DNA of 32,000 nt from Dickeya dadantii NCPPB 898 (GCF_000406145.1 NZ_CM001976.1:3101337-3133336), one strand, 5' to 3'. Positions 9,001 through 32,000 are shown, counted from the first letter of the stretch. Program-made: numbers and translations. The notes: a model not told the origin generated them from the letters alone.

Positions 9001-12000
9001 CGAGCTAATGCCTGCGATACGCGGAATCTCGCTTGCGACGCGCTGACCATTCTCTTGCGTCACGTCGAGTACAGGACGTTGCCATGGTTCCAGCGACTGC
9101 TGAAGACGGAATGGCCCACCCTGAAAGTCGATAAACGGGTTAATCGCTTTTGACTGAATCGACGGCACCAGCGTCCGGTGTTTTATCTGCAGCAGCACTT
9201 TGGTCAACGCCGACATGCCGGCGGCGGCTTCCAGGTGACCGATATTGGCCTTGACCGAGCCGATGGCGCAGTATTTGGTATTCTCTCCGGCGATCGAAAA
9301 CGCCTTATTCAACCCGCTGATTTCAATCGGATCGCCAAGTTTAGTGCCCGTACCATGCGCTTCGACATAGCTGATATGACGCGGATTAACGTTGGCCGCC
9401 TCCAGCGCGTCAACGATCAACTCAGCCTGACGTTTCGCGTTAGGAACCGTAAAGCCGGATGTTTTACCGCCGTGGTTCACCGCCGTGCCGCGAATGATGC
9501 CATAGATATGGTCACCCTCTTCCCGGGCCTGAGACAGAGGCTTAAGCACCACCGCCCCAACCCCCTCTCCCGGCACATACCCCGTGCCGCCTTCACCAAA
9601 ACTGCGGCAGCGACCGTCCGAAGAGAGGAAGTGCATATTGGATAGCAGATGATACTTATAAGGGTGCAGCGACAGGTTGACGCCGCCTGCAATCGCAACC
9701 GGGACATCGCCGCTGCGAATGGCATGACAGGCAATATGGATAGCCGTCAATGACGATGAACAGGCCGTGTCCAGCGCCATACTGGGGCCGGAGAAGTTAA
9801 AGAAGTGCGAAACACGGTTCGCTACCGACCAATAAGATGAATGGGAGGTCGTCCATTCGTCTACGGGGCTGGTGATGGCATGAAGCTGGTAATCCCCCCA
9901 CATCATGCCGACATAGACGCCGACGCGGTTTTCGCGCCCTACCTGCAAGGGTGCGAGCTTATCTGCCGTATATCCAGAGTCTTCAATGGCATGAGCGACG
10001 GTTTCAAGGAACAGCCACTCATTCGGGTCCATGATTTCCGTTTCTTTCGGGGAAATATTGAAATAACGGAGATCGAAGCGTTCAACGTCGGAAAGGAATC
10101 CTCCCCACCGGCTGTAACTTTTCCCTGGCGTTGCCGCGCCTTCCTGAAACCAGCGTTCGTCCCAGCGTTCAGACGGGACATCGATAATGCAGTCACGCCC
10201 TTGCGTCAGATTGCGCCAGAACTGATCGAGATTGTCCGCCTGGGGGTAACGTCCGGCGATACCGATAATGGCAATATCGTCATCGTTTACGACACGCGGC
10301 GATCCCTGCAACCGCTGCACTGGCGCAGCCGCGCGTACGACATCGGCAGCCGGCAAGGCGGCGTTGACGGTCGGTTTTACCACCGCGCTCGCCGACGTCG
10401 TGCCCCGCAGGCCATTACAGGCCTCATGACAGTTCTCAAGCAGGAAGCGGCTAAGCTCTTCCATGGTTTGATATTCAAAGAACAGCGTCATCGGCAACCC
10501 GCTGCCGAATGTCGTTTTCAACGCATTGACCAGTTCAATAACCACGACCGAATCAAAGCCATAGTCACGAAAGAAGCCATTACGCTCGAAATGCGCCGGG
10601 ATTTGTAACTTTCTGGCAAACAGGTCGGACAAATACCGAATAACGACATCCTGTAACGAGTGACGGTCGTCGGCATCGGGAGCGCTCAACGCCTCGCGCA
10701 CCGGCGCCATATCGACAACGCCCAGAACCTCCTCAATGCGCGCATGTTCTCCCGGCATCACCACCATCTGAGCAGCCTGGCTTTGCAGGGCATAATCAAA
10801 AATGGCGATACCGTCTTCGGTCAGCAACGGAATAATCCCAAAATGGCTCTTCAGGAAGCCCTCTTCTTTATCAGTAAGACGCATGCCGCCGTCTTTCCAG
10901 TAGGGCCAGTTCAGAGACAGCGTTTTACCGCTACGTTCGCCCCGTTGTTGCAGTGCGTTACGCTGATAAGAAAAATAATCTTCGAAGGCATTGCCAAAGG
11001 CATAGTCGCATTGACCCATATTGCCTAAGACGCCGGTGACGGAAGAGAAGAGCGCAAAGAAGTCGAGCGGCTGATCGTGTGTGGCGTCATCAAGCAGCCA
11101 GGTGCCGATTGCCTTCGGGGTGACGACCCGCTCAAAGGCTTCACTGCTTTTACGCAGAATAAAGTTATCTTCGATGACGCCGGCAGAATGGATGATACCG
11201 TTCAGCGAGCGGCCCGATGCGCGGATCGCCTCGATTAAACCCTGAACGCTATCCGGATCGCTGATGTCACACGCCAGATAAATGGCATTGCCGCCGAGTT
11301 CATTCAGCTCATCAAGCTGCTGCCGCCGCTTTTCATCCAGCGCGGAGCGTCCGCTCAAATAGACGGTGGCGTCATAGCATGAGCACAGGTAACGAGCGAA
11401 AATCAGCCCCAACGCGCCCAACCCGCCGGTAATCAGGTAGGTTCCCTGCCGGCGCAAAGAAGCCGGGGCGGATAACGGCGGGTTAACCGCATCGGCCCCC
11501 TTCGCGCGCAACGCGGAGCCGGCATACGTTGATAACGGTGCATCCTTGACAAAGCGACGCACCAGACGAGCCCCCTGCACATAGCGCACGTCGGCATCTT
11601 TGGATACGTCGCTGAATTCGCTTTTGATCAACGCCGGGATAGTAACGCCAGCCTGTTTTTCACCATCAATAACCGCGTCGCAATGCACCACATGGCCGAT
11701 ATAGGCTGGTTTTTCGACACGCAAAGTCCGGTAGAAACCACTGATGGCGGAGATATCCGGCACGCTCTCGCCGGCGAGATAGAAATGGACAAACCGAACC
11801 TTTTTGACCTTACGCATCAGCGCTTTAGTCAGCGCGAAGAGGCTGTGAGGGCCACGACTCAGGCGAGCGACCCAATCATCGCCGGTCTGTTCCGCATTGA
11901 CCCAAAGCACCTGCTCAAACGTTGCTCCCCGCGACAACAGCGCATCCACCGCCGCAATGAAGTCGTCTCCATTGCCCGGGCGAACCCACGCGCGATCCGG

Positions 12001-14928: not shown

Positions 14929-15915
14929 TATTCACATCCGTATGTTTATGTTTATTATTTCTCGAAATAATCAATGCCATTTTCGCAGCCAAATAACTCT
15001 CTGGATGCAGAACTCATCAATAGTTAAATAGTTTGGTATTCCATATACCATTACAAACAACTTAGTGGATATTGCATTAAAAACATTCACCCATCTAATG
15101 TAATTTAATTCTTTTTATTGTCATAATGTAACCAACAAACAATAAATACAGCAAAAATAAAAAATAATTAATTGTAGTTATTTGATTTTAATGTATTTTT
15201 TATTGAAACAAAAAAACACACTTCCAGAGCATTTCAAGATATTCGACACTATTAAAGTTAAAATACCCTAATGAAATCACGTAGTGGAAATGTTATTACA
15301 ATAATTATCTGTTGATTCTTAATTAAATAACCCCTGCGTTTCCTAAAGCATATTCACGGTGAATAACTTACTCGAAAATGAAATTAAAATGTCATATTAC
15401 TGTCATTTAAAATCACTTAGCAAACGAAGAGTATACTGCTGCGTGGCTTAATAAATATCGATGCTATGCGTGAAATTAGATGTAATTAGACAGCATCTCT
15501 TCTTCGAAAATCTTTCAATGCTTGATAGCATCAACCAGCGGTTGGCAGGGAACCATGCCCGATAGAAGTAGACCACAGTTCCCCACTCACCAAGTGGCAG
15601 AAACTGCTATATATCCTGTAAAGCCGTCTTCGGTAAGCACCTGAATTTACGTGGCGATGATGCGATGTGTGGGTAGCAGACGTGATGGTTATCAACCATA
15701 TATTGAGTAATATAATGCAGACTGGAATAGCGGAAAATGTTAAAGCCGACTGAAAGTGACAATATTATGACAGTAGTGGGCAGGGAATTTATTTATTCAA
15801 CAAGGCCAGATTGAGGGTGAGATTATTTTATTTGTTCAACATGAAACTGTCAGCTACCATAGCGATTGCTGCATTGTTATTGGATGATAAACGGTATATT
15901 TGACACGGAGTTATT

Positions 15916-16419
15916 ATGTTAGAGATTGTAACAGGGATGCCAGCATGGGTACTTATTATTTTGATTTCGACCACCTTCTATTGTATAAGTTTTTGCTTTG
16001 AAAAAGATGTTAGCATTAAGTTTTTGTTACTTATTCCAGGCTGTTTTATGATTTTTTCGATTATCTCTTTACTACAGCAAGGTCACATCCTGGTTTCAAG
16101 TCTGGTGTGGTTATTGGGCTGTATGTTAGGAGGGAGCGTAGCAAAGAGAATTTTTTCACCTCAAGCCTACAGCCTGGGCCGCAAGGAAGGTACAGTTACG
16201 GTGCCGGGAACGTATTCCATTATTACAATTTTTTTACTCTACTTCCCTCTTCGCTACTATATCGGCTATCGTCAGGCGATCGCGGTTGATCATACTCTCA
16301 GCACTACGATGATGTTGCTATTAGCCGTATCGTCAGGGGGCGTTGTCGGTTTTTTCGCCCTCCGCTCGTATATTATCTTTTTGCGCTATAAGAAACTGAA
16401 TATTAAAAAAATAGCGTAG
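15916..16419 (+). CDS. Hypothetical polytopic inner-membrane protein (167 aa)
   Basis: ORF-track ORF with ATG preceded by ACGGAG 6 nt upstream. It has 4-5 hydrophobic helices (AWVLIILISTTFYCISF, FLLLIPGCFMIFSIISLL, LVSSLVWLLGCMLGG, YSIITIFLLYF, MMLLLAVSSGGVVGFFAL). AT-rich, unlike the neighbouring PKS. No family recognised. Confidence 0.6.
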   Translation: MLEIVTGMPAWVLIILISTTFYCISFCFEKDVSIKFLLLIPGCFMIFSIISLLQQGHILVSSLVWLLGCMLGGSVAKRIFSPQAYSLGRKEGTVTVPGTYSIITIFLLYFPLRYYIGYRQAIAVDHTLSTTMMLLLAVSSGGVVGFFALRSYIIFLRYKKLNIKKIA

Positions 16420-16518
16420 CCTGTTGGACCATCCCGTGTTCGGGAGCGTTCAAATTAGCAGAGCATCTGCTTTTCAATAAAGGTTGCAATAACCTTTTCA
16501 TGCATCTCAACACAGCGC

Positions 16519-19944: not shown

Positions 19945-20593
19945 TACTAATCAATGTCTCCGCGCTAAATAAGCCGTGGCGAATCGCCAGATGCGTCAGT
20001 TCAACATCGCCATTTATGTTCAGCTTACTGAACATTCGATAACGATAACTGTTGACCGTTTTCGGGCTAAGGTTGAGTTGATCGGAGATCTCCGTCACTT
20101 TTTGCCCTTTAGTGATCATCATCATAATCTGTAATTCGCGTTCAGACAGACACTCCAGCGGTGTTTCTGCCTGCGGCTCCAGTTGACTCAACGCCATTTG
20201 CTGAGCGATATCCGACGCAATATAGCGTTTGCCGGCATGCACAGAGCGAATGGCGCAAATCACCTCTTCCGGCGTGGCGCCCTTGCTAAGGTAACCCGCC
20301 GCCCCGGCCTGCATCACTTTAGCAGGTAACGGATTCTCTGTGTGAATCGTTAGCATTATAACTTTAATTTCAGGGGAAAATCGTACAATTTTGCGTGTTG
20401 CCTCAAGACCGCCGATTCCTGGCATGTTCATATCCATCAGCACAACGTCCGCACTGTTATTACGGCACCATCTGACCGCATCTTCACCGCACTGCGCCTC
20501 ACCAACAACCTTGAGGCCTTTAATATCGTCAAGAATGCGCCGTATCCCTGCTCGCACCAGTTCATGGTCATCAACAAGAAAAACGCTAATCAA
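19937..20593 (-). CDS. uvrY: Two-component response regulator UvrY/GacA family (218 aa)
   Basis: [20 protein letters not shown]...[21 protein letters not shown]...[43 protein letters not shown]. The TTG at 20593 has GGAG 9 nt upstream and matches the homologue N-terminus M-I-x-V-x-LVDDHE. The maximal ORF extends to a GTG at 20620. Confidence 0.92.
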
Positions 20594-21243
20594 AGAACAA
20601 TTCTCCAAAAAGAGTAACACTTACAGACGAGTTTGTTGCAGGTGGTACTACGTGGTTTAGAAAAAATGAATACACTTTTTAATTAAAAATGTATTTTTTA
20701 CTCTACCATGTGGTATTATTCTTTAAGTTCCCGAATGATAGCGACTGCGCATCAGACGTGGAACTCACTTCCATCACAGTATTCATATTTCCAACCTGGT
20801 TTTTTAGAGAAACAGACAGATTCACTGTCTGAAAAATGTCAAAATCTAAATTTAATCAATAGATTATCAAGTTTTGTAAGTACAGGCAATCGGGTGCGCA
20901 ATTGCTTTCTTTTCCATCATTGTAACTGTCTTGTCACTTTGCCGCACCGACTGTTTACTACAAATAATACACCTGCTTCAAAATATCCATATAAAAGTTG
21001 CAATGTATCTAATCAAACGCATTTAAAAGCCAAAAAACACACGTTAACAAAATATAGGCAAAATGTGGCGTAAACAGATAAAAAGAATACAACTTCATGG
21101 GTAAGAATGGTTATTTTCCTGACCAGATGTATTGTCAGCTATGGTATAATAAAGCCAAATTTTGTTATGTCGCCGGCGAGAATGGCAGCGCAGAACCAAT
21201 CCCTGCTCCACCGCGCCGGCTTCCGTTTGTTACAGGAGACACT

Positions 21244-21468
21244 ATGAACAACAACGACTTTCCGACAGCCTCTACACCCGAAACATTGGCGCATGAAGTC
21301 AGCTGCCTGAAAGTGCTGATGACGTTGATGCTGAAATCCATTGGTCAGGCTGATGCAGGCAAGGTCATCGTCAGCATGGAAAAATACATTGCCCAACTGG
21401 AAGACCCTGCTGAGGCGGAAATATTCGGCACAACCATTAAGCAAATCAAAACAGTCTATCGCCGCTAA
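21244..21468 (+). CDS. yecF: YecF-like small protein (DUF2594), 74 aa
   Basis: MNNNDFPTAS...LAHEVSCLKVLMTLMLKSIGQADAGKVIVSMEKYIAQLED...IKQIKTVYRR closely parallels E. coli YecF. AGGAGAC lies upstream of the ATG at 21244. The 123-aa ORF-track version is an upstream extension. Confidence 0.85.
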   Translation: MNNNDFPTASTPETLAHEVSCLKVLMTLMLKSIGQADAGKVIVSMEKYIAQLEDPAEAEIFGTTIKQIKTVYRR

Positions 21469-21800
21469 TCAAAACCCATCGGACATCAGCGCAACCCGCT
21501 ATTGCCCGATGGGGATGAGCCGCCTTCCCCGCACAATAAATAAGCAGAAATAAAAACAACAATGCGCGAATGTTGACATAATGATTTATATTTCGTCAAC
21601 AAAGCAGGCTATTGTCAGATAAATAGCCAGATAAATGGCAATATAAAAGTTTAATACTTGTGATCTATTCCGAAACAGCACGCCTTAACCCAAAATAGAG
21701 TTATTGAGTAATCATTCCGGGGAATTAAATAATGAGAAAATATTTCTGCGCGAAAATGCATTAGCATCAAAAAAAGAATAACACAAATGAAAGGAAGTGT

Positions 21801-21876
<76 letters not shown>

Positions 21877-21887
21877 AACGGGGACGG

Positions 21888-21916
21888 ATTATTCTCTTCT
21901 TAACGTCATCTGTCAA
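21888..21916 (-). promoter_or_regulatory. Putative sigma70 promoter of tRNA-Lys(CUU)
   Basis: Minus strand has TTGACA (21916-21911), a 17-nt spacer, AATAAT (21893-21888), then the GC-rich CCGTCCCCGTT just before the tRNA 5' end. Confidence 0.6.
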
Positions 21917-22202
21917 ATAGTTCATCTTATTTTTTCTGCGGACGGTGAATCGGCGAACACATTGTAACCTATCACTATTTTGTTACCCCTCACGGCTGCC
22001 AGTCGGCTTCAGACTGATTCCAGGATATAAATTCGCCATCGATTGAAGCACCTACCGAAGTGACACGAAATACGCCGCAACTCATCATGAGAAGAATACC
22101 GTGTTACTATTAACCATTCTAACTTCTTATATCACTAGGGAACGGGAGCGAAACCTGACAAACGCCCTCACCCTGGCAGACACAATCCGGAAATCACATT
22201 AC

Positions 22203-23948: not shown

Positions 23949-24285
23949 GTGTACCTCCTGAATAGTTACGACTAAGTAGTAGCAAGAAGCGCGCCAGATC
24001 ATTTCACTATCATCAAAAAAAGCATGGCGATGGCTTAACCCGCTTAAAAATAAGTAAAAGCAATGGCGATAGCGGTGGCAGTAACAATACTAATCCCCCT
24101 GTCGCTGTCCGTCGTATCCTGATGCCAGGAGTTTTTTGCACCAAAACAGTGCGATCGCTGCTATTTGAAAGTGCACTCGCTAACGAGTTCAACGGTTCGC
24201 CTGGTGTGAAAAGCGCCGACTACCACAGTAATTTCAATCATTTGATTATAACTTCAGCAAACAGTCGCCCGCGACGTTAACATGC

Positions 24286-24315
24286 TTTGACAAGCCGTCA
24301 GGCTATCGCTATCAT
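24286..24315 (+). promoter_or_regulatory. Putative sigma70 promoter of tRNA-Asn
   Basis: TTGACA (24286-24291), an 18-nt spacer, TATCAT (24310-24315). The tRNA starts at 24333. Confidence 0.55.
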
Positions 24316-24332
24316 CCACACCACTTAGCGAT

Positions 24333-24408
24333 TCCTCTGTAGTTCAGTCGGTAGAACGGCGGACTGTTAATCCGTATGTCACTGGTTCGAGTCCAGTCAG
24401 AGGAGCCA
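24333..24408 (+). tRNA. asnV: tRNA-Asn (anticodon GUU)
   Basis: TCCTCTGTAGTTCAGTCGGTAGAACGGCGGACTGTTAATCCGTATGTCACTGGTTCGAGTCCAGTCAGAGGAGCCA is identical, as far as I recall, to E. coli tRNA-Asn. The locus name is inferred from adjacency to nac. Confidence 0.95.
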
Positions 24409-24418
24409 ATTTAAAGAA

Positions 24419-24447
24419 TGTAGATGCCTACGGGCGTCTACATTTTT
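24419..24447 (+). terminator. Rho-independent terminator after tRNA-Asn
   Basis: TGTAGATGCC (24419-24428), loop TACG, GGCGTCTACA (24433-24442, one G-U pair), then TTTTT (24443-24447). Confidence 0.7.
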
Positions 24448-24523
24448 GCATTTAATCAATTGCTTGCCCCTCTTCTCTTGTCTACTAACATCCACTGAAA
24501 TACACCTATATCCAGCAATTTTG

Positions 24524-24552
24524 TTGGTAGATTTCTTGGTAGTTCTGGTTAG
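24524..24552 (+). repeat. Three helically phased direct repeats TTGGTAG / TTGGTAG / TGGTTAG upstream of int
   Basis: Copies at 24524-24530, 24536-24542 and 24546-24552. TTGTTGG (24521-24527) is also inverted as CCAACAA (24565-24571), just before the int RBS. Confidence 0.4.
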
Positions 24553-24587
24553 ATTTTCCTTATACCAACAAAAAGGAAAGAGAATCT

Positions 24588-25862
24588 ATGTCACTTACTG
24601 ACACCAAAGTAAAAAAAGCTAAACCTCTTGAGAAAGAATACAAGCTTACTGACGGTTTTGGTATGCACCTGCTTGTCCACCCGAACGGCTCTAAATACTG
24701 GCGACTTTCCTACCGCTTTGCGCAGAAGCAAAAACTGTTAGCGTTGGGGGTTTACCCTGCTATTTCTTTGACTGACGCAAGGGAGCGTCGTGATGAAGCG
24801 CGTAAGCTGATTGCTAATGGGATTGATCCCGGAGCCAGAAAAAAATCAGGCCGTGAGCGACAAGGAACACATGATGAATCTCGCTCCTTTGCTGTAATGG
24901 CTCGTGCATGGGCTGAGACCAAAACCAAGTGGTCAGAAGACTACAAAGTTAAGGTCTGGAGACGCATTGAAAACTACCTCCTGCCAGATCTGGGAAATCG
25001 TGATGTATCAGAGCTTGATACCAGCGATTTACTCATCCCCCTCAGAAAAGTTGAGAAATTAGGCTATCTCGACATCACCATGCGCCTGAAGCAGTATACA
25101 ACCTCTATCATGCGATACGCCGTCCAACAGAAGATCATCAGTTATAACCCTGCTTATGATTTGCAAGGCACTATCGAAAAAGGTGAGACAGCGCACCGCC
25201 CTTCTATCGAAATCTATGAAATTCCCGATCTCTTACAAAAACTCGACAACTACCGTGGTCGGGGTCTTTTAACAGAATTAGCGATCAAGCTCACATTATT
25301 AGTTTTTGTCAGGTCAAGTGAGTTACGTTTTGCCCGATGGAGTGAAATCGACTTCAAAAAATCTCTCTGGGTTATCCCTGAACAACGCAAGGAAGTTAAA
25401 GGGGTAAAACACTCTGGTCGTGGTGCCAAAATGAAGAGAAAGCATTTTGTCCCACTGTGCAGGCAGGCGGTTGAGATCTTGAAAGAGGTTAAACAGATCA
25501 CTTATGGTGAAAAAGCGGGTGACGGGTTTATTTTCACCGGGTTTTACGACAATGATTCTGCGATGAGTTCAGGCACTATCAATAAAGCCCTTCAGCGTAT
25601 GGGATATGACACCAAAACCGATCTGTGTGGGCATGGCTTTCGCACGTTAGCCTGTAGTGCATTGACGGAATCTGGATTGTGGTCGGAAGATACAGTCGAG
25701 CTTCAAATGAGCCATAAAGAGAGAAACACCGTTAGATCTGCTTATACCCATAAAGTCAGTCATCTTGACCAGCGTAAACTGATGCTGCAATGGTGGGCAG
25801 ACTTTCTGGATGCGAATCGCAATGGAGTAGTTAGCCCGTTTGAGTTTGCACAGAAAGGATAG
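24588..25862 (+). CDS. int: P4/CP4-57-type tyrosine integrase (424 aa)
   Basis: N-terminus MSLTDTKVKKAKPLEKEYKLTDGFGMHLLVHPNGSKYWRLSYRF (DUF4102-type arm-binding domain). Catalytic motifs are FVRSSELRFARWSEIDF, CGHGFRTLACSAL and VRSAYTH. Strong resemblance to the tRNA-Asn HPI integrase. RBS is AGGAAAGAG. Confidence 0.93.
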   Translation: MSLTDTKVKKAKPLEKEYKLTDGFGMHLLVHPNGSKYWRLSYRFAQKQKLLALGVYPAISLTDARERRDEARKLIANGIDPGARKKSGRERQGTHDESRSFAVMARAWAETKTKWSEDYKVKVWRRIENYLLPDLGNRDVSELDTSDLLIPLRKVEKLGYLDITMRLKQYTTSIMRYAVQQKIISYNPAYDLQGTIEKGETAHRPSIEIYEIPDLLQKLDNYRGRGLLTELAIKLTLLVFVRSSELRFARWSEIDFKKSLWVIPEQRKEVKGVKHSGRGAKMKRKHFVPLCRQAVEILKEVKQITYGEKAGDGFIFTGFYDNDSAMSSGTINKALQRMGYDTKTDLCGHGFRTLACSALTESGLWSEDTVELQMSHKERNTVRSAYTHKVSHLDQRKLMLQWWADFLDANRNGVVSPFEFAQKG

Positions 25863-26095
25863 ATTTAAGGCCAAGGATGGCTAGATTGTATTATCACCTC
25901 GGTTCATTGCTTTACATTCTCAGTTTCTAAACGACAAGCTTTTTAAGTCGCTGTCCAGGCTAACGTGTCCGCTTACCACTACCTTAAACAAATCTCTTTC
26001 CAATGAAATACTTACCAATCTATTAATGTGATAAGAATGTATTCCGCTCATTAGTTGATTGCATTACAATCAATCGTAACGCAATCATGTAATTC

Positions 26096-26743
26096 ATGGA
26101 TGGAATGACAGTGACTGAAGCAGATCTGGATGAACTGGCTGACCGTATAGTGAAGATGCTAACCACTACGGATTTTTATGAAGGGATGGGATCTGGAATA
26201 TCAGAGATAGGCAAGAACTACGGTTATCTCGCATATGGCTTTATAGATACCGACTCTCGCTCATCAAGAGAAAGAGAGGTAGAAAGGCTGATCAGAGCGA
26301 TTCATAAAGGGATTGTATCAAGAGATAAGATCATTGAAGCAATAACCCGCATATTCAACATCTTCAACCGTAATGTTTCCGAAGCTAAAAAAGAGGCAAT
26401 TTATAATAAGGTAGCCGGAGGATTGGTCGGTGGATTCATTGTTTCTCAGGCAGTGATGATCACATCCAAGCGCATTGGTAATATGCCAAAAGTGTCTACC
26501 GCAATGGTGTATTATGTATTGCTATTAGGTGGGATGATGGATAGAGCAATATATAGATCCCGGTCGTTGAGAGAGCAGAATCCTGAAGTTTATTCAGAAC
26601 TAAGAAGAGATGATTTAGATCTTCTTTTCTTTCTTTTCGAAGATCAAGTCGAGCCATTGGTTGAAGCGATAAAGATGAGAAGAACTTATGGCGCAGGTAT
26701 GTTTAACAATCTGATTGATAAAGTTGAATACCGGATGAAATGA
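26096..26743 (+). CDS. Hypothetical protein (215 aa) with a central glycine-rich hydrophobic hairpin
   Basis: ORF-track ORF. VAGGLVGGFIVSQAVMITS and STAMVYYVLLLGGMM look like two TM segments. No recognisable family. Ends at TGA 26741-26743, followed in frame by another 66 sense codons. Confidence 0.55.
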   Translation: MDGMTVTEADLDELADRIVKMLTTTDFYEGMGSGISEIGKNYGYLAYGFIDTDSRSSREREVERLIRAIHKGIVSRDKIIEAITRIFNIFNRNVSEAKKEAIYNKVAGGLVGGFIVSQAVMITSKRIGNMPKVSTAMVYYVLLLGGMMDRAIYRSRSLREQNPEVYSELRRDDLDLLFFLFEDQVEPLVEAIKMRRTYGAGMFNNLIDKVEYRMK

Positions 26744-26944
26744 TATGCTTACACTCTTAAAAAAATCGGCGTATTTTTATTTAAAAACATCATCTTTGCT
26801 CTTTTCAGCATATCCTTTCTTTGTATTATCTATATTTTATTGGTTGGATATGCTCCGTGGAATGAAAAAACCATTCATCTCATCATCGCCATTGCAGTCT
26901 GCTTCGGATTAGGGAAATTCTTCACATGGCTTGATGAAAAATAA
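26744..26944 (+). other. In-frame 66-codon continuation after the TGA, encoding a two-TM hairpin (readthrough product, nonsense-split gene, or separate mini-protein)
   Basis: YAYTLKKIGVFLFKNIIFALFSISFLCIIYILLVGYAPWNEKTIHLIIAIAVCFGLGKFFTWLDEK-TAA (stop 26942-26944). No ATG or GTG start in this frame; the only TTG is 33 codons in. The ATG at 26746 is in a different frame and gives a 55-aa product. Confidence 0.4.
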
Positions 26945-26963
26945 ATGCAGGGTATCCCCTGCA
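26936..26963 (-). terminator. Rho-independent terminator of hcp (shared hairpin between convergent genes)
   Basis: Minus strand after the hcp stop reads TGCAGGG-GATA-CCCTGCA (26963-26946) followed by TTTATTTTT. Confidence 0.7.
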
Positions 26964-26968
26964 CTTGT

Positions 26969-27454
26969 TCAGTTCATGAACTTCGTCATTTCCCACAATG
27001 CATAACCAGACGTTCCGGCTTTGTGGTGCGTCCATGTCACATCTTTATATCTGATAGAGATATGCTCCAATATCAGTCCAGCACCATCATCAATGATATT
27101 AGGCATGACAAGATTGATATCAGATATGAGTCCATCATTGATCTGAATGGAGAAAAACTTCTCTTGCTTGGCATGTTGCGTCGTGCGGTAAAAGTCGAGC
27201 AGCACTTTGACTTTCTCTTGCTCGTTCAATGCCATTGCCATTAACGGCGTTGACTTATCGATAGGTTTTACCAGGGTGATCGGGTTATGAACGGCATGGC
27301 CGTCATTGCTCATCATATGGTTAAAAGCCAAGATCATGATTTCATCGGTATGCCCTGCCTGATATCGGTTACCGATAGATTCTAATGTGGAGCAGCCCTC
27401 AGAAATCAATCCCTGTGATTTACCTTCGATAGTCATGTATGCATAATTAGCCAT
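26969..27454 (-). CDS. hcp: Type VI secretion tube protein Hcp (TssD), solitary copy (161 aa)
   Basis: MANYAYMTIEGKSQGLISEGCSTLESIGNRYQAGHTDEIMILAFNH...HNPITLVKPIDKSTPLMAMAL...FYRTTQHAKQEKFFSIQIN...ISIRYKDVTWTHHKAGTSGYALW carries the Hcp1-family hallmarks (IxGxxQGxIxxGCS..SIG...GHxDEI, GTSG near the C-terminus). RBS is AAGGAAA. Confidence 0.85.
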   Translation of the reverse strand: MANYAYMTIEGKSQGLISEGCSTLESIGNRYQAGHTDEIMILAFNHMMSNDGHAVHNPITLVKPIDKSTPLMAMALNEQEKVKVLLDFYRTTQHAKQEKFFSIQINDGLISDINLVMPNIIDDGAGLILEHISIRYKDVTWTHHKAGTSGYALWEMTKFMN

Positions 27455-27543
27455 ATAAATTTCCTTTTCAATGGTTTGCGCTTTGCATATTATCGTTAAT
27501 GAACACTCAAGACCATTGATGCAATTATAATGATTAGGATGAT

Positions 27544-27720
27544 ATGGATATCAAAGAGCTCAGCGAATCGATTTGTTCATTCGTAAACTACGATGGGCGT
27601 TCCCCGTTGACTGAGAACGAAATAACCCTAATATACGAGTTTAAGAAGCAGCTTCTTGGTAGTGAAGTTGAGCCTCGTGATGTTTTTGTTGAAATATATT
27701 TAAAGCACTACAGACATTAG
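27544..27720 (+). CDS. Hypothetical small protein (58 aa), divergent from hcp
   Basis: ATG at 27544 with AGGA 4 nt upstream. Product is MDIKELSESICSFVNYDGRSPLTENEITLIYEFKKQLLGSEVEPRDVFVEIYLKHYRH. Below the ORF-track size cut-off. No family recognised. Confidence 0.4.
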   Translation: MDIKELSESICSFVNYDGRSPLTENEITLIYEFKKQLLGSEVEPRDVFVEIYLKHYRH

Positions 27721-27870
27721 ACTCTGGATATTAATCAGATTTAGTGAGTGATAAAGTACCAAATCCGGATACAAAAAACACTTCAATACTAGGCTTATTA
27801 GTATATTGAAAATATATAAATCGCCCTTTCAGGGATGCTTAGATCGATAATAAAAATTAAAATTATAACA

Positions 27871-27909
27871 TTAATAGCTAACAAGGATCCTCCACTCGTC
27901 AGCTATTAA
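27871..27909 (-). terminator. Possible terminator of the two-gene operon (9-bp inverted repeat, large loop)
   Basis: TTAATAGCT (27871-27879) and AGCTATTAA (27901-27909), 10 nt downstream of the stop at 27920 on the minus strand, followed by T-rich sequence. The 21-nt loop makes it weak. Confidence 0.3.
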
Positions 27910-27919
27910 TTTTAGCAAA

Positions 27920-29683
27920 TTATTCGATCAGTCGACACGTATCAAAATAAATATCTAAATTTAGATCCAAAGGTTTAGAAAAAAAACTTCTCTCATTTTT
28001 TCCATCACCAATGAAAAATAAACTCGTGCTTTCAGGAAAATATTTTTCTTTAATATCTTGAACTTTAGCCCTTCTAGTAATGCTGACTTTTTCACCACCG
28101 CCTGTCGATTTATCATCTGTATATTCTGAAATAGATATAAATGACTGAGTATCTGATGAAAGATTTTTCCCTACAAAAGATAATATGAGATCAAAATTTC
28201 TATCATCAATATCTTCTTTAAGGATCGCATCAAGCATAAATGGAAGCCTATGTATTTCAGCAGTCTTATCAATGAGATGATTTAATGCAAAGTGATATGA
28301 CATTACAGTTTTGTGCAACTCAACGCCCTGGAAAGGGAAAGAATTTATTTTATATAGTTCTGTGTATCTAGGTTCTTTTACATTGAATAATTGCATCTCA
28401 TTAAGATACCGTTGAAATATATCTTTAAAATCTTTTTCCTTATTAAACCGAGCCAAAAAAAGAGTCTGCTCCTCTTCCATCCCATCAATTAGTAATTTAA
28501 GATCGTTAACCCTTGTAGTATGCTCATCCATCTCTTTATGCATATTAGCTAAAAGCCGTACATTTGCTTTGTTGTCTATCCATGTATCAAAAGAAATGTT
28601 TTGTGATTTTTTTTCTATGAAATATGAATACTTAATCGATATATCTATTTCCAGGTTTTTAATCTTCGTCAACGAACTATTAATATCAGATTGAACCTCT
28701 TGGATTTTAGAATTTATTTTCTCTAAAAGTTTATCAGTATCGTTTATATTTTGATAAAAACTATATAACCCTTCTAAAGAGTATGGAAGTATTTGTGTGC
28801 AAGCAGGGCAACGGTCAATATCATTATAGCTTTGACTTTTAATATTCCTTTTCGTCCTTCTAAGTATTTTAAGGTGATTTCTAGTCAATGATAACTTATT
28901 ACATAAACTTGTATATGTATCGCGTTCACCATCTAACAGTTCTATTGATTGAATATAACCATCGATATATTTCTGAGCCTCATCACCAAACTCTTCATCT
29001 AATAATTTAGATACAACCAAGCGAGGTTCATTACTATATTTATTTAACGAGGAAATTTTAGATTGAAGCTGCGCAGTTTCTTTTTTTAATTGATAAAAAT
29101 GCTCTTTATCAAATGTGTTTTCAATACCCAAATAGTAATCAAGGTATGTATCTTTAAAATCTTTATAAAAACCAAGATTAGAAAATGACTCTCTTAAATA
29201 GACCCACCCTACAGACTGAGAAATATAGTAAGGAAGAAACATGCATTCTATTGATGCTTTTTTTAATTCTCCTTTTTGCTCTAAAAGCATATTAAAACCA
29301 AAAAGATGAGATAGTTTTTCTTTAAGCTTTATATGTTCAACTCGCGTATCAGCATCAATTCCATGAAAGCTAACAACGCTCCCTCCAACTTCCCTTAAAT
29401 ATATGCTACCTGAGTTTCTTACTATAGTATATTTCTCTTCCCCCTGACCTTTGTTAATAACAAAATCCAATCTAAAGATAGGATTATAATTAATAATTTC
29501 ACTTAATCCGTCTTTGACATCATTTATACCAAAAGTAAACAATATACTCTGTATTAAAGTGCTTTTACCAGAAGTATTACAGCCACTAATTATATTTATT
29601 GCATGTGAAAACCTTTGGTCAAAATATAAACCATGTGTTTCAGAAGCAACAAAAAGTCTATCAAATCTGATAATTGTCTTCAT
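27920..29683 (-). CDS. SMC/Rad50-like P-loop ATPase with central coiled coil and CxxC (LmuB/DUF3732-like), 587 aa
   Basis: N-terminal head: AINIISGCNTSGKSTLIQSILFTFG (Walker A 29558-29584). Residues ~190-440 are long heptad-like K/E/L/I/N-rich segments with CPAC at 292-295. C-terminal head: VMSYHFALNHLIDKTAEIHRLPFMLDAILKEDID (signature/Walker-B-like). The start is 8 nt after the upstream stop (TAAGGAATGCCATG). Confidence 0.8.
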   Translation of the reverse strand: MKTIIRFDRLFVASETHGLYFDQRFSHAINIISGCNTSGKSTLIQSILFTFGINDVKDGLSEIINYNPIFRLDFVINKGQGEEKYTIVRNSGSIYLREVGGSVVSFHGIDADTRVEHIKLKEKLSHLFGFNMLLEQKGELKKASIECMFLPYYISQSVGWVYLRESFSNLGFYKDFKDTYLDYYLGIENTFDKEHFYQLKKETAQLQSKISSLNKYSNEPRLVVSKLLDEEFGDEAQKYIDGYIQSIELLDGERDTYTSLCNKLSLTRNHLKILRRTKRNIKSQSYNDIDRCPACTQILPYSLEGLYSFYQNINDTDKLLEKINSKIQEVQSDINSSLTKIKNLEIDISIKYSYFIEKKSQNISFDTWIDNKANVRLLANMHKEMDEHTTRVNDLKLLIDGMEEEQTLFLARFNKEKDFKDIFQRYLNEMQLFNVKEPRYTELYKINSFPFQGVELHKTVMSYHFALNHLIDKTAEIHRLPFMLDAILKEDIDDRNFDLILSFVGKNLSSDTQSFISISEYTDDKSTGGGEKVSITRRAKVQDIKEKYFPESTSLFFIGDGKNERSFFSKPLDLNLDIYFDTCRLIE

Positions 29684-29691
29684 GGCATTCC

Positions 29692-30801
29692 TTAATCATA
29701 ACACTCCACATAAGAACAAAGAACCGCAAAAAAAGTATCAATATTACTTAGGTTTAAATGGTGATTCTTTTTAATATCGTTAACATATGCATTTAATATA
29801 TCTTGAATAGTAAAATACTGGGCTGTGTAATCGTTATTTCTAATAAAATTCTTAATAATTTGATAATCGTAATTACTCATATCCTTAAGTAATTCAAAAG
29901 AATTAATTATGTAATCTCCATGTCTTTTCTGTATGTTCATTGGTATTTTAAATTGTACTGAGAATTGTTGAGCGGCTGTTCGCCAGTGATCGAATGCTTT
30001 TTGCTGTGAGTCAATTATATTCATAACCATCTTAACTTCCTCACCTTCAACCCTTTTTGCTGGATCAAGCAAGCATATCTCCTGCCCTTGATTATATACT
30101 GTCTCCACATTCCTAAATAGATTAAGTATTACGTCAATAGCCGCTTTCGGATCAATTATATGTGGAAACTTTCTAGACATTAGTCCTATAAGCGATTCTT
30201 TCTGTTTCGCCGCTGTTCTAGGAAAATCTACCCACTGAATAATTAAATTATCTAATTCCTGTCGATGGAAAACAGAAGACTCATCACTACAGATCTCAGC
30301 AACTTTCTTTTCGATTTTATTTTTAATATTCTCGTGTAACTTATCATATAAACAGAGAGAATTCTGCTCGTTTATCTTTGATACCTGCTCAACAACACCT
30401 TCGTTTTTAAGCTTCTTTGATGGTGAGTATTTTAATTCCATTTCGGTGTTTGATATAAATGTTAACTGGTGCTTGTAATCTTCACTTTTTTCGAAAGAAT
30501 CATTTCTCAGATTATCCCCAACCAATAGTATTTTCGATACCATCTCTGAGAATCTAGCGTCTATAGTCCATATTTTCCCACTGAGTTTCTTGGCTTGGTA
30601 GGCATGAACTTCGTTAATATAATTCAAGCAGTCGGTTTTAAAACAAAAGAGAAAGTCATCATGATGTTCAATACAAATAAAAAAACTCTTATTTACGAAA
30701 GAATTGAAATTTTCTAATAGAAGATATAGCGCACAGTTTCTTTGAAATTCGAAACCAGTTAACGCATCAACCCCAGCATTTATCGCTTTATTTTTAGCCA
30801 C
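29692..30801 (-). CDS. PD-(D/E)xK nuclease-like effector (Cap4-nuclease/DUF4297-like N-domain, LmuA-like), about 369 aa
   Basis: N-terminal LTGFEFQRNCALYLLL...FFICIEHHDDFLFCF...VHAYQAKKLSG fits the GFxFQ...E-x-x-D-D...Q-x-K layout of DUF4297/Cap4 nuclease domains (from memory). The C-terminal ~200 aa is helical and unassigned. The GTG at 30801 has AGGAG 6 nt upstream. The maximal ORF starts at a TTG at 30816. Confidence 0.75.
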   Translation of the reverse strand: MAKNKAINAGVDALTGFEFQRNCALYLLLENFNSFVNKSFFICIEHHDDFLFCFKTDCLNYINEVHAYQAKKLSGKIWTIDARFSEMVSKILLVGDNLRNDSFEKSEDYKHQLTFISNTEMELKYSPSKKLKNEGVVEQVSKINEQNSLCLYDKLHENIKNKIEKKVAEICSDESSVFHRQELDNLIIQWVDFPRTAAKQKESLIGLMSRKFPHIIDPKAAIDVILNLFRNVETVYNQGQEICLLDPAKRVEGEEVKMVMNIIDSQQKAFDHWRTAAQQFSVQFKIPMNIQKRHGDYIINSFELLKDMSNYDYQIIKNFIRNNDYTAQYFTIQDILNAYVNDIKKNHHLNLSNIDTFFAVLCSYVECYD

Positions 30802-31002
30802 CTGACTCTCCTGCAATAGCTAAAAATTTCAATTGTTATCCAGCTATCCTGCGGACGCAAATGAAACCATTTAAACGACATATATCATGAAAACGGGAAA
30901 AAATAAAATTACACAGACATGTTTAGTGATCTAAAACTCTGTTTAGAATACTGTTTTTTTATACAGACAGAGGACGTAGAGATCTTATAAAAAGAAAAGA
31001 GA

Positions 31003-31194
31003 TCACTTAGGCTCAATCCCCTGCTTACGAAGCTCTTTACGGGCAAGTTCTTTGAACCAGTTGCCGAGGCTGACACCTTCTTTTGCTACGACTTCATCGA
31101 GCTGTTCACGTAACTCAGGTGAGATCCGGATCTGAAAAGTGGGTGATTTCCCCACTGATGAAGATTTTTTAGTGTCGCGTTTAATCGTTGACAT
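31003..31194 (-). CDS. Ribbon-helix-helix (Arc/CopG-like) DNA-binding protein, 63 aa
   Basis: Basic N-tail, then TFQIRISPELREQLDEVVAKEGVSLGNWFKELARKEL, a beta-strand/helix/helix pattern typical of RHH repressors and antitoxins. Same strand as the two-gene operon and 186 nt upstream of it. Confidence 0.6.
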   Translation of the reverse strand: MSTIKRDTKKSSSVGKSPTFQIRISPELREQLDEVVAKEGVSLGNWFKELARKELRKQGIEPK

Positions 31195-31236
31195 GTACGT
31201 ACCTTTTTAACTATGCTGAGTTTTATAGGTACGTAC
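31195..31236. promoter_or_regulatory. Candidate operator: inverted pair of 10-mers, each containing the palindrome GTACGTAC
   Basis: GTACGTACCT (31195-31204, abutting the RHH start codon) and AGGTACGTAC (31227-31236) are exact reverse complements. Palindrome centres are 34 bp apart, in the divergent promoter region. Confidence 0.5.
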
Positions 31237-31434
31237 AATATCACAAACGCATCTTATACTCATCACCTGTTTCGCCCCTGAAAGGTAGTGCAATACCAGA
31301 CAGGGGCTAACCACACCGTTAAGGAAGTAACGATATGGCTATCAGCAAGTCTAGCAATTCCCTTTTGGATAAGCACCTTAAACAAGTTAAACGTTATTTT
31401 AATCTGTTCCGGCAACAAGCTACGGAGGTGCGTT

Positions 31435-31623
31435 ATGTTCGATAACACACCTTTAGAGCAGGAAGAAATCATCGATCAGTGCAGAGCATTGATCTACGCC
31501 GTTATCGAAACCAAACAGCCACAAGTCAAAGAAATTCTGACGTTCATTCTTTGGGAACGGTTGGATTGGTTGTATCAGGATTTTCATGCGGAAGACGAAC
31601 ACAAACTCAGTGATATGAAATAA
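31435..31623 (+). CDS. Hypothetical small acidic protein (62 aa)
   Basis: ATG at 31435 with GGAGG 6 nt upstream. Product is MFDNTPLEQEEIIDQCRALIYAVIETKQPQVKEILTFILWERLDWLYQDFHAEDEHKLSDMK. The 111-aa ORF-track version has a hydrophobic, RBS-less extension. Confidence 0.5.
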   Translation: MFDNTPLEQEEIIDQCRALIYAVIETKQPQVKEILTFILWERLDWLYQDFHAEDEHKLSDMK

Positions 31624-31704
31624 ATTCCATTTATAATTGAAATTTTAAGTAATAATAGAGCTATAATCTTATAGCTCTTTATAATATGATACGTTATGAT
31701 TTCA

Positions 31705-32000
31705 TCATTGATTATTTATACTTGAAGTTCTTATTGTCCCTAAGTGCCAATATCCACCACTATATGTTCTAGCTATAGTTAAAAATCCGCAGCACACAAG
31801 AATAGTCAGCGAAACAAGAATGGTGTAATACCAATTAACATCAGAATCAACGGAAAATTTGGGGAGTGAATAAAATAGCAACCCACACCATATTATGGTT
31901 ATAAAAAGACTGATTAATTGATTTATTTTAGATACAGAAATAGGTGATGGACCGGTGAGAATGTGGATAAAATTTTCTTTTATTCCTATAGGCTTAGAGC
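31705..32000 (-). CDS. 3' end of a hypothetical membrane protein (start beyond the window)
   Basis: The minus frame is open from the window edge: ...ISLFITIIWCGLLFYSLPKFSVDSDVNWYYTILVSLTILVCCGFLTIARTYSGGYWHLGTIRTSSINNQ-TGA (stop 31705-31707). Two TM helices. Not in the ORF track because it has no start in the window. Confidence 0.45.
   Translation of the reverse strand, partial: SKPIGIKENFIHILTGPSPISVSKINQLISLFITIIWCGLLFYSLPKFSVDSDVNWYYTILVSLTILVCCGFLTIARTYSGGYWHLGTIRTSSINNQ

Follow-up and report, generated by a model that had tools for sequence, protein, structure and literature searches.

A two-gene cassette in a tRNA-Asn integrative island of Dickeya dadantii is very probably a type I Lamassu defence system

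A 32,000-nucleotide (nt) stretch of DNA from Dickeya dadantii NCPPB 898 (GCF_000406145.1 NZ_CM001976.1:3101337-3133336; hereafter the window) contains two adjacent minus-strand genes, here called lmuA and lmuB, that very probably constitute a short Lamassu defence system of type I, which has two genes and lacks LmuC, with a nuclease of the Cap4 subtype. The pair, its conserved 5' region and a terminator form a self-contained cassette within a tRNA-Asn integrative island of this Pectobacteriaceae genome. The assignment is based on family membership, domain architecture, motifs, operon structure and mobility. A two-gene lmuA–lmuB arrangement is the published definition of type I Lamassu (bioRxiv 10.1101/2025.06.23.660979), the group also described as clade S, from which LmuC has been lost (PMC12663957). 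A first-pass annotation of the window had proposed that the pair encodes an SMC-like sensor and a Cap4-like nuclease, in the order lmuA–lmuB, with no LmuC and in a variable island, and both the PADLOC models and the predicted folds agree with this core proposal. The cassette is, however, a known and already catalogued kind of system, and not the separate or undescribed lineage that the same annotation had entertained.

The LmuA and LmuB models of PADLOC match both proteins end to end. In particular, LmuB model PDLC00250 matches residues 1–587 of the product of the second gene on model positions 1–580 of 582 (E = 1.6e-255, 847 bits), and LmuA model PDLC00244 matches residues 7–374 of the longest form of the product of the first gene on model positions 3–363 of 366 (E = 4.8e-149, 495 bits). 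Thirteen further LmuB models and two further LmuA models also cover most of the length of their respective proteins; models for GajA, AriA and other systems match the P-loop of LmuB alone, at E>=2e-4. At 587 amino acids (aa), LmuB lies within the "short" class, which is about 600 aa in length. An exhaustive search with a profile of the window's own clade brought in a second tier of LmuB relatives of 560–580 aa (E from 1e-36 to 1e-22), and a wide profile built from both tiers (A3) matches residues 7–557 of 562 of the chain named "Lamassu protein LmuB" in the PDB (9ux7_A) at E = 1.9e-54. With sequences clustered at 50%, a search with the LmuB profile reaches 611 clusters at E<=1e-3. A wide profile was built for LmuB alone, and the link between LmuA and solved structures is made by its fold and by the PADLOC models.

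The predicted folds of both proteins best match the type I LmuAB–DNA complex of Bacillus cellulasensis. The AlphaFold2 model of LmuB (predicted local distance difference test score, pLDDT, of 75) comprises an N-terminal head half (residues ~1–185), an antiparallel coiled coil (~193–429) and a C-terminal head half (~438–587), with ~237 residues of antiparallel helices between the heads and a low-confidence apex at residues 287–301. Its top Foldseek match in the PDB is LmuB of that complex (9ux7_A, E = 3.4e-14), the next being YydD of B. subtilis and the LmuB proteins of Salmonella enterica and Vibrio cholerae, ahead of SMC, Rad50 and JetC; type II LmuB proteins are matched at E values of 2e-10 to 7e-8. 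The model of LmuA (pLDDT 85.6) comprises an N-terminal nuclease domain (~1–190) and a helical C-terminal domain (~197–369), and its top match, over the full length, is LmuA of the same complex (9ux7_C, E = 4.3e-6, TMt 0.62). The fold matches that follow are Cap4 (6vm5), which covers the N-terminal half of LmuA, and HamA of the Hachiman system.

Conserved motifs in LmuB are consistent with an SMC/Rad50-like ATPase. In the Walker A motif GCNTSGKST, residues G34, N36, G39, K40 and S41 are invariant among 32 relatives with identities down to 17%; Y153, Q156, W160, G453 (within the signature-like sequence SFPFQGVE), P481 and Q513 are conserved as well. The sole CxxC of LmuB, CPAC, has cysteines (C292 and C295) that are likewise unchanged throughout the 32 relatives, even at 17% identity, and it falls in a low-confidence loop of the model whose flanking helices end at residue 282 and resume at residue 293. 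CPAC aligns with CQYC of the B. cellulasensis protein (BcLmuB residues 285–288), a canonical zinc hook at the tip farthest from the heads (10.1101/2025.06.23.660979), and short LmuB proteins carry zero to two copies of CxxC (PMC12663957). Judged by its sequence, CPAC is a Rad50-type zinc hook. In the Walker B motif LPFMLDA, D485 is invariant, and A486, nearly invariant among members of the clade, predominates at its position of the wide alignment. Short Lamassu proteins (LmuB of about 600 aa) have a canonical Walker A motif and a Walker B motif of the form hhhhD[Q/S/T/E] (PMC12663957), and BcLmuB carries MDS at the place where LmuB of the window has D-A. The Ala is thus, as read from the alignment, slightly beyond the published set of residues, yet of the same character, in that the catalytic Glu is absent. 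The D-A pair might make LmuB a non-hydrolysing or very slow ATPase; a "naturally deviant Walker B" is described for BcLmuB and its V. cholerae counterpart, VcLmuB, both of which nonetheless show moderate ATP hydrolysis (10.1101/2025.06.23.660979).

Within LmuA, residues E45, H46, D48 and D49 (motif EHHDD) and Q69, K71 and K72 (motif QAKK) are invariant across 30 homologues with identities down to 35%, and G16, F19 and Q20 are also conserved. These motifs form a predicted D...QxK arrangement of the PD-(D/E)xK type, and they may well be catalytic, to judge from the K57A mutants described for BcLmuA and VcLmuA (10.1101/2025.06.23.660979; PMC12663957). The motifs quoted in the first-pass annotation are all present, as GFEFQ, EHHDD and QAKK in the first protein and as GCNTSGKST with K40, CPAC at 292–295 and HFALNHL...LPFMLDA in the second. 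The Pfam labels it attached to the two proteins fared differently. For the DUF4297/Cap4 label of LmuA, 21 of the 30 aligned homologues match PF14130 (Cap4_nuclease, formerly DUF4297; best E = 1.6e-11) and the fold matches Cap4, but the window protein itself has no Pfam match at E<=0.1 and in NCBIfam only a single, chance-level match to TuaF. The DUF3732 label for LmuB finds no counterpart in Pfam, being absent both from the matches of the window protein (E<=0.1) and from those of 32 relatives (E<=0.001); the PDB gives that name to LmuB from the type II systems of V. cholerae and S. enterica, and it does not define type I. In Pfam and NCBIfam the window LmuB has only sub-threshold matches to P-loop, SMC_N, Rad50 and SMC entries, and the 32 relatives match SMC_N, AAA_23 and AAA_15 in Pfam (E<=0.001).

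Because hundreds of full-length homologues exist, lmuA and lmuB are, by the measure of sequence conservation, real genes and not chance open reading frames (ORFs). Translation of the window and inspection of its sequence bear out the earlier description of two coupled minus-strand genes with an 8-nt gap and a ribosome-binding site that runs over the upstream stop codon: the junction reads ...GAT TAA GGAATGCC ATG, and the Shine–Dalgarno sequence of lmuB, AAGGA, overlaps the TAA of lmuA and has its final base 5 nt ahead of the lmuB ATG. The two genes are adjacent and co-oriented in every locus that was fetched (loci are designated by L numbers). The 8-nt gap recurs in L001, L003–L006 and L014–L016; among distant homologues the genes overlap by 1–4 nt (L010, L011, L017 and L018) or lie 2–4 nt apart (L012 and L013). 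The start of lmuA is most likely the GTG at 30801, giving a protein of 369 aa, rather than the TTG at 30816 and the 374 aa given by the first-pass annotation. We favour the GTG because AGGAG sits 6 nt 5' of it; because an NCBI-annotated Pectobacteriaceae protein that is 100% identical to LmuA (P0121) is 369 aa long; because the longest lmuA ORF in Kluyvera (L001), Buttiauxella (L003) and Photorhabdus (L004) opens at GTG, with no start codon further upstream, and the gene calls in Klebsiella and Pantoea are 369 aa; and because the match to the PADLOC model of LmuA begins only at residue 7 of the 374-aa form. The placement of the pair in a tRNA-Asn/integrase island is borne out by a tRNA-Asn gene and a P4-type integrase gene, downstream of which the pair lies, and its AT-richness relative to the core by GC contents of 30.0% (lmuB) and 32.3% (lmuA), compared with 58.6% for positions 1–14000 of the window. 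The features of the cassette and its island are collected in Table 1.

Table 1 Features of the lmuA–lmuB cassette and its island context, in coordinates of the 32,000-nt window.
Feature	Coordinates	Strand	Remarks
lmuB ORF	27920..29683	-	587 aa, ATG start
lmuA ORF, longest form	29692..30816	-	374 aa from TTG
lmuA, favoured form	29692..30801	-	369 aa from GTG 30801
lmuA–lmuB junction	29684..29691	-	8-nt spacer GGAATGCC
LmuA predicted active-site motifs	30586..30669	-	EHHDD (E45–D49) at 30655-30669; QAKK (Q69–K72) at 30586-30597; coordinates checked by translation
LmuB Walker A GCNTSGKST (K40)	29558..29584	-	
LmuB zinc-hook motif CPAC (C292–C295)	28799..28810	-	coiled-coil apex
LmuB signature-like SFPFQGVE	28319-28342	-	upstream of Walker B
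LmuB Walker B LPFMLDA (D485–A486)	28226..28246	-	no catalytic Glu
Conserved 5' leader, probable promoter region	30802..30948	-	travels with the cassette
LexA (SOS) box-like palindrome, minus-strand reading GTCTGTATAAAAAAACAGTA	30949..30968	.	148 nt 5' of the lmuA GTG
Intrinsic-terminator-like hairpin and T-rich tract	27848..27910	-	hairpin 27870-27910, T-rich tract 27848-27869; begins 9 nt past the lmuB stop
tRNA-Asn	24333-24408		island context of the gene pair
P4-type tyrosine integrase	24588-25862		island context

The distribution of the pair is that of an accessory defence module. When positions 24001–32000 of the window were compared with related loci by BLASTN, the DNA shared between genera ran from about 27852–27920 to 30966–31000, that is, lmuB, lmuA and ~165–200 nt upstream, and nothing more. 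Within this span the DNA identity is 77–84% in Kluyvera, Buttiauxella, Photorhabdus and E. coli, the flanks being unrelated, and counting Klebsiella and Pantoea the cassette is common to six other enterobacterial genera at ~80% DNA identity. A P4-type integrase gene lies directly upstream of it in all of these except Pantoea, where the cassette is placed after a gene for a UvrD-like helicase and a DUF2290 pair; in the sister loci, integrases of the same family as that of the window have the domains Arm-DNA-bind_3, Phage_int_M and Phage_integrase. The adjoining tRNA gene is tRNA-Thr in Kluyvera (L001), Buttiauxella and E. coli and tRNA-Leu in Photorhabdus. (Note that no tRNA gene occurs in the stretch fetched for a second Kluyvera locus, L002, and that Klebsiella was not scanned for tRNA genes.) Sister Pectobacteriaceae strains keep the order of the window, namely the gene for a ribbon–helix–helix (RHH) protein, lmuA, lmuB and hcp; they also encode a DEAD/ResIII helicase of 841 aa, which the window lacks, and, farther along the island, a relaxase. 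Among 5,426 complete genomes of E. coli, the cassette turned up in only 3. Relatives of ~39% identity occur on plasmids of Bacillus cereus, Paenibacillus and Yersinia, beside genes annotated as DUF4297, and in phage genomes we found only partial, N-terminal matches at 27% identity, in records of Klebsiella phages. The cassette is a compact mobile unit of 3.1 kb that extends from a conserved 5' palindrome to a terminator and is usually found near P4-type integrases.

In these genera an arsenic-resistance (ars) operon often follows the cassette. In E. coli JX2 (L008), Kluyvera L001 and Klebsiella L015 and L016 the cassette is wedged between the P4-type integrase gene and the ars operon, which is arsRDABC in E. 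coli JX2 and includes genes for ArsD and ArsB, or for an ArsR-like protein and ArsD, in the Kluyvera and Klebsiella loci; a tRNA-Thr(cgt) gene adjoins this arrangement in E. coli and Kluyvera. The arrangement suggests that these loci share a CP4-6-like island backbone, unlike the tRNA-Asn island of the window.

At the 5' edge of the homology between genera, the first conserved bases are those of the palindrome GTCTGTATAAAAAAACAGTA. The gammaproteobacterial LexA box has the consensus CTGT-N8-ACAG, and the palindrome is the sole match to it in the 32-kb window, where 0.26 matches are expected by chance on average. On a matrix derived from 19 SOS boxes of E. coli, which themselves score between 12.7 and 26.8 bits, the site scores 18.3 bits. 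When the 400 nt upstream were shuffled 2000 times, that value was reached only twice. SOS-box-like sites scoring 18–24 bits are present in all of the ~80%-identity cassettes that were fetched (L001–L008 and L014–L016), which span seven genera. The site is absent from the ~53%-identity cassettes L010, L012, L013, L017 and L018 and weak in L011, this set comprising Stutzerimonas, P. syringae, V. cholerae, Providencia and Moellerella without the site and one Vibrio with a weak one, and no LexA-box-like site is found with a plasmid-borne relative from Bacillus cereus. A LexA box is therefore ruled out as a family-wide feature. We propose only tentatively, and regard it as possible rather than probable, that LexA, as part of the SOS response, directly controls the type I Lamassu cassettes of the enterobacterial subclade through the GTCTGTATAAAAAAACAGTA site. 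The literature searched contains no report of LexA control of Lamassu; one preprint describes defence genes as generally anti-correlated with recA expression, with some of them in the LexA regulon. The leader between the palindrome and lmuA is also well conserved, with a mean column identity of 86% in an alignment (A4) of Pectobacteriaceae, Kluyvera, Buttiauxella, Photorhabdus and E. coli sequences, and a scan for sigma-70 promoters upstream of lmuA gave nothing above chance and no site on the minus strand.

In Pantoea agglomerans (L014, positions 2789–2870) a tandem array of the 11-nt unit TATAAAAACAG, expanded about five times, lies beside the SOS-box-like site, where the window has two units. 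Owing to the expansion, the distance from the Pantoea box to lmuA downstream of it is 193 nt instead of 150 nt.

The 3' end of the cassette is marked by a hairpin with a minimum free energy of -20.9 kcal/mol (z = -2.8), followed by a T-rich tract. Across seven cassettes, 12 of the 18 predicted pairs are maintained through two-sided changes, and because the pairs covary, the alignment supports the view that the hairpin is a real intrinsic terminator. A simple terminator scan missed it, presumably owing to the AT-rich stem. The SOS-box-like site at the 5' edge and the covarying terminator at the 3' end are possibly new details.

A genuine Lamassu system might have as its chief role a part in conflict between mobile elements or in the stabilization of its island, through anti-plasmid activity or addiction, instead of defence against phages. 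DdmABC, the type II homologue in V. cholerae, clears plasmids from the cell; the cassette is always carried on integrative elements, with a relaxase on the island of the sister strains; and the SOS-box-like site suggests induction alongside resident elements. We consider this reading unlikely as an account of the chief role, since the type I systems that have been tested are anti-phage, although the present data separate neither role from the other and the two are not mutually exclusive.

That the pair represents a separate, undescribed lineage of SMC-plus-nuclease systems that merely resembles Lamassu is, in our estimation, very improbable. Several observations nevertheless speak for such a lineage or against the assignment to type I Lamassu. 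The window proteins have no significant Pfam match to Cap4/DUF4297 or DUF3732. Neither single sequences nor clade-level profiles reach a solved Lamassu protein: PDB searches with the single LmuA and LmuB sequences and with the clade-level LmuA profile (A2) returned nothing meaningful, and the clade-level LmuB profile (A1) reached only the P-loops of Rad50 proteins, so that the link is transitive, by way of intermediate homologues. The identity to the solved type I proteins in the fold alignments is just 13–16%, and the TM-scores of the LmuB model are low (0.44), which limits structural certainty and probably reflects the geometry of the predicted coiled coil. The Walker B pair of LmuB is D-A, compared with D-S in BcLmuB and D[Q/S/T/E] in published short Lamassu proteins, and its ATPase may differ in behaviour on that account. 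Moreover, no experimental test of the ~80%-identity enterobacterial subclade was found in the Lamassu literature consulted. On the other side, the existing PADLOC subfamily models score nearly as they would against themselves (847 bits for 587 aa and 495 bits for 369 aa), 13 other LmuB and 2 other LmuA models match, the wide profile reaches BcLmuB, and both folds find their best match in type I LmuAB. Furthermore, the three traits that the first-pass annotation took for deviations from canonical Lamassu are all published Lamassu features: the lack of LmuC defines type I, the CxxC in the middle of the protein is the zinc hook seen as CQYC in BcLmuB, and short Lamassu proteins characteristically have a Walker B motif without Glu, even if the published D[Q/S/T/E] set does not include Ala.

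It is likewise very improbable that the cassette belongs to a type II-like system whose third component, an LmuC-like protein, is remote or has escaped recognition. Candidates for such a component would be a 63-aa RHH gene (31003-31194), which in the Pectobacteriaceae loci is separated from the cassette by 34 nt on the upstream side, and a 58-aa ORF (27544-27720, plus strand) downstream of it. However, the cassettes of Kluyvera, Buttiauxella, Photorhabdus, E. coli, Klebsiella and Pantoea occur without either ORF; the RHH protein matches YlcI/YnfO, HicB and RHH_1 below their cut-offs and matches no PADLOC model, as is also the case in PADLOC for the flanking Hcp protein and the product of a 215-aa ORF, small ORFs of up to 58 aa not having been scanned individually; and BcLmuAB forms a functional complex of two LmuB and one LmuA in the absence of LmuC (10.1101/2025.06.23.660979). 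Within the conserved cassette there is no room for a further ORF, such as lmuC, either between or beside lmuA and lmuB. The upstream RHH gene, the downstream hcp gene and the 58-aa ORF were rejected as parts of the system, as they do not travel with the cassette.

A housekeeping DNA-repair pair of the SbcCD/Rad50–Mre11 kind is suggested by the Rad50-like head fold and zinc hook of LmuB, by its weak best Pfam and NCBIfam matches to Rad50/SMC P-loops and by a published proposal that derives Lamassu from SbcCD, but this reading, which the first-pass annotation had itself listed as possible grounds for refuting its proposal, is effectively refuted because the distribution of the pair is accessory and not core (3 of 5,426 E. 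coli genomes, a GC content of 30–32% against about 59% for the core, and a cassette that is the only thing conserved between genera, beside integrases at different tRNA genes), its partner being moreover a Cap4-type nuclease and not an Mre11/SbcD phosphoesterase, and its coiled coil being short (587 aa for the whole protein).

The closest characterized counterpart of the type I Lamassu cassette of the window is LmuAB of B. cellulasensis NIO-1130 (PDB 9ux7/9ux8; Doron et al. 2018; 10.1101/2025.06.23.660979). The two have the same gene order, lmuA–lmuB, and no LmuC; in both, LmuA consists of a Cap4 nuclease domain and a helical C-terminal domain, and LmuB is short (562 aa in B. cellulasensis and 587 aa here), with a Rad50-like head, a Walker B motif that lacks Glu and a single CxxC zinc hook at mid-length (residues 285–288 and 292–295, respectively). 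They differ in sequence (by the low fold-alignment identity given above and in the residue after the Walker B Asp), in the Gram-negative host of the window cassette and in the LexA-box-like site carried by the enterobacterial cassette. The type II Lamassu/DdmABC systems, LmuACB of V. cholerae and S. enterica (9ny5, 9nyg, 9uxh and 9hqx), belong to the same family and have a mechanism presumed to be the same. In them, however, lmuC lies between lmuA and lmuB, where the window has an 8-nt gap; their LmuB proteins are 653–660 aa long and bear the name DUF3732 in the PDB, and V. cholerae LmuB has no zinc hook. The sequence similarity of the window LmuB to type II LmuB is confined to the N-terminal P-loop region (E about 1e-6).

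Two further systems resemble one or other half of the pair. Rad50–Mre11/SbcCD, which recognize DNA ends and have been proposed as the evolutionary source of Lamassu, likewise have an ABC-ATPase head split by an antiparallel coiled coil that bears a CxxC zinc hook, but their coiled coils are far longer, their partner is the Mre11/SbcD phosphoesterase, their genes are core genes and their Walker B motif has the canonical Glu. Cap4 of the cyclic-oligonucleotide-based antiphage signalling system (CBASS) of Moraxella osloensis (6vm5) has the nuclease fold and the PF14130 family of the N-terminal half of LmuA. Unlike LmuA, Cap4 bears a SAVED domain, and its activators are cyclic oligonucleotides made by a CD-NTase. 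The C-terminal half of LmuA is predicted to be helical and matches the C-terminal domain of LmuA proteins rather than SAVED; by analogy, it would bind LmuB. No nucleotidyltransferase appears in Pfam scans of the immediate neighbours of the cassette (integrase, 215-aa ORF, Hcp and RHH).

How the cassette might act can be outlined from its solved relatives. All of the biochemical steps, and the defence phenotype itself, are inferred from LmuAB of B. cellulasensis and LmuACB of V. cholerae and S. enterica, the systems in which protection by abortive infection, sensing of DNA ends and tetramerization of LmuA have been established (10.1101/2025.06.23.660979; PMC12663957). Two LmuB molecules would dimerize by way of the zinc hook, CPAC, and of their coiled coils, and one LmuA monomer would be kept inactive on the coiled coil by its helical C-terminal domain. 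The LmuB heads would detect free ends of double-stranded DNA, or replication structures or intermediates of phages or plasmids, and slow turnover of ATP at the Walker B motif that lacks Glu may modulate this sensing. LmuA would then be set free and tetramerize through its C-terminal domain, so that its Cap4 nuclease domains would pair into an active site that degrades DNA non-specifically, leading to abortive infection in which the infected cell dies. The tight coupling of lmuA to lmuB would fit a need to avoid free LmuA.

As one more case of a catalogued defence family, the cassette adds little to the general picture, and PADLOC, and probably DefenseFinder, would label it automatically. Two genes for "hypothetical proteins", together with homologous genes from bacteria such as E. 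coli, Klebsiella, Yersinia and Photorhabdus, are now annotated as type I Lamassu. The conserved SOS-box-like element is the sole part that might merit follow-up. Were SOS control real, an abortive-infection nuclease that senses DNA ends would be tied transcriptionally to DNA damage or prophage induction, which would bear on how cells restrain a self-destructive sensor of DNA ends.

Several neighbouring features of the window were also recorded. The 63-aa RHH protein is encoded on the minus strand by a gene that ends 34 nt upstream of the SOS-box-like site. Only the Pectobacteriaceae loci have this gene, so it is probably a neighbour of the cassette on the island, or a regulator acting locally, and not a component of the cassette. 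Directly downstream of the cassette, positions 26969–27454 (minus strand) hold an orphan gene for the Hcp/TssD tube protein of the type VI secretion system (NCBIfam TIGR03344, E = 1.5e-55); no other genes of such a system are in view nearby, and hcp is kept with the cassette solely in Pectobacteriaceae loci. The 58-aa ORF, which reads MDIKELSESICSFVNYDGRS..., lies within the 465-nt gap between hcp and lmuB, and the sister loci have no gene call there. Positions 26369–26940 are a hotspot for insertions and deletions, at which homology to loci L005 and L006 is broken; between hcp and an integrase-proximal gene of 213 aa those loci hold the 841-aa DEAD/ResIII helicase and a 67-aa gene, both of which the window lacks. 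The 215-aa ORF of the window (26096-26743) has no family match in the PADLOC or Pfam scans.

Farther from the cassette, positions 1–14931 (minus strand) contain a stop-free frame of at least 4,977 aa that runs off the left end of the window and is probably a giant megasynthase gene of the polyketide synthase/non-ribosomal peptide synthetase type; its N-terminus, near 14928, reads MDIAIIGISCRFPDANNYNDLWDN... and resembles the start of a ketosynthase. ORFs on the plus strand within positions 1–14000 have no Pfam matches and were set aside as probably spurious, the giant minus-strand ORF being the real gene. Patches of low GC content (34–46%, in surrounding core of 54–60%) occur at positions 14001–16500 and 20001–22000. 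The first lies just upstream of the megasynthase start and includes a 167-aa ORF (15916-16419) that has no Pfam match, and the second lies around a tRNA-Lys(ctt) gene (21801-21876), near genes for a uvrY-like response regulator and uvrC.

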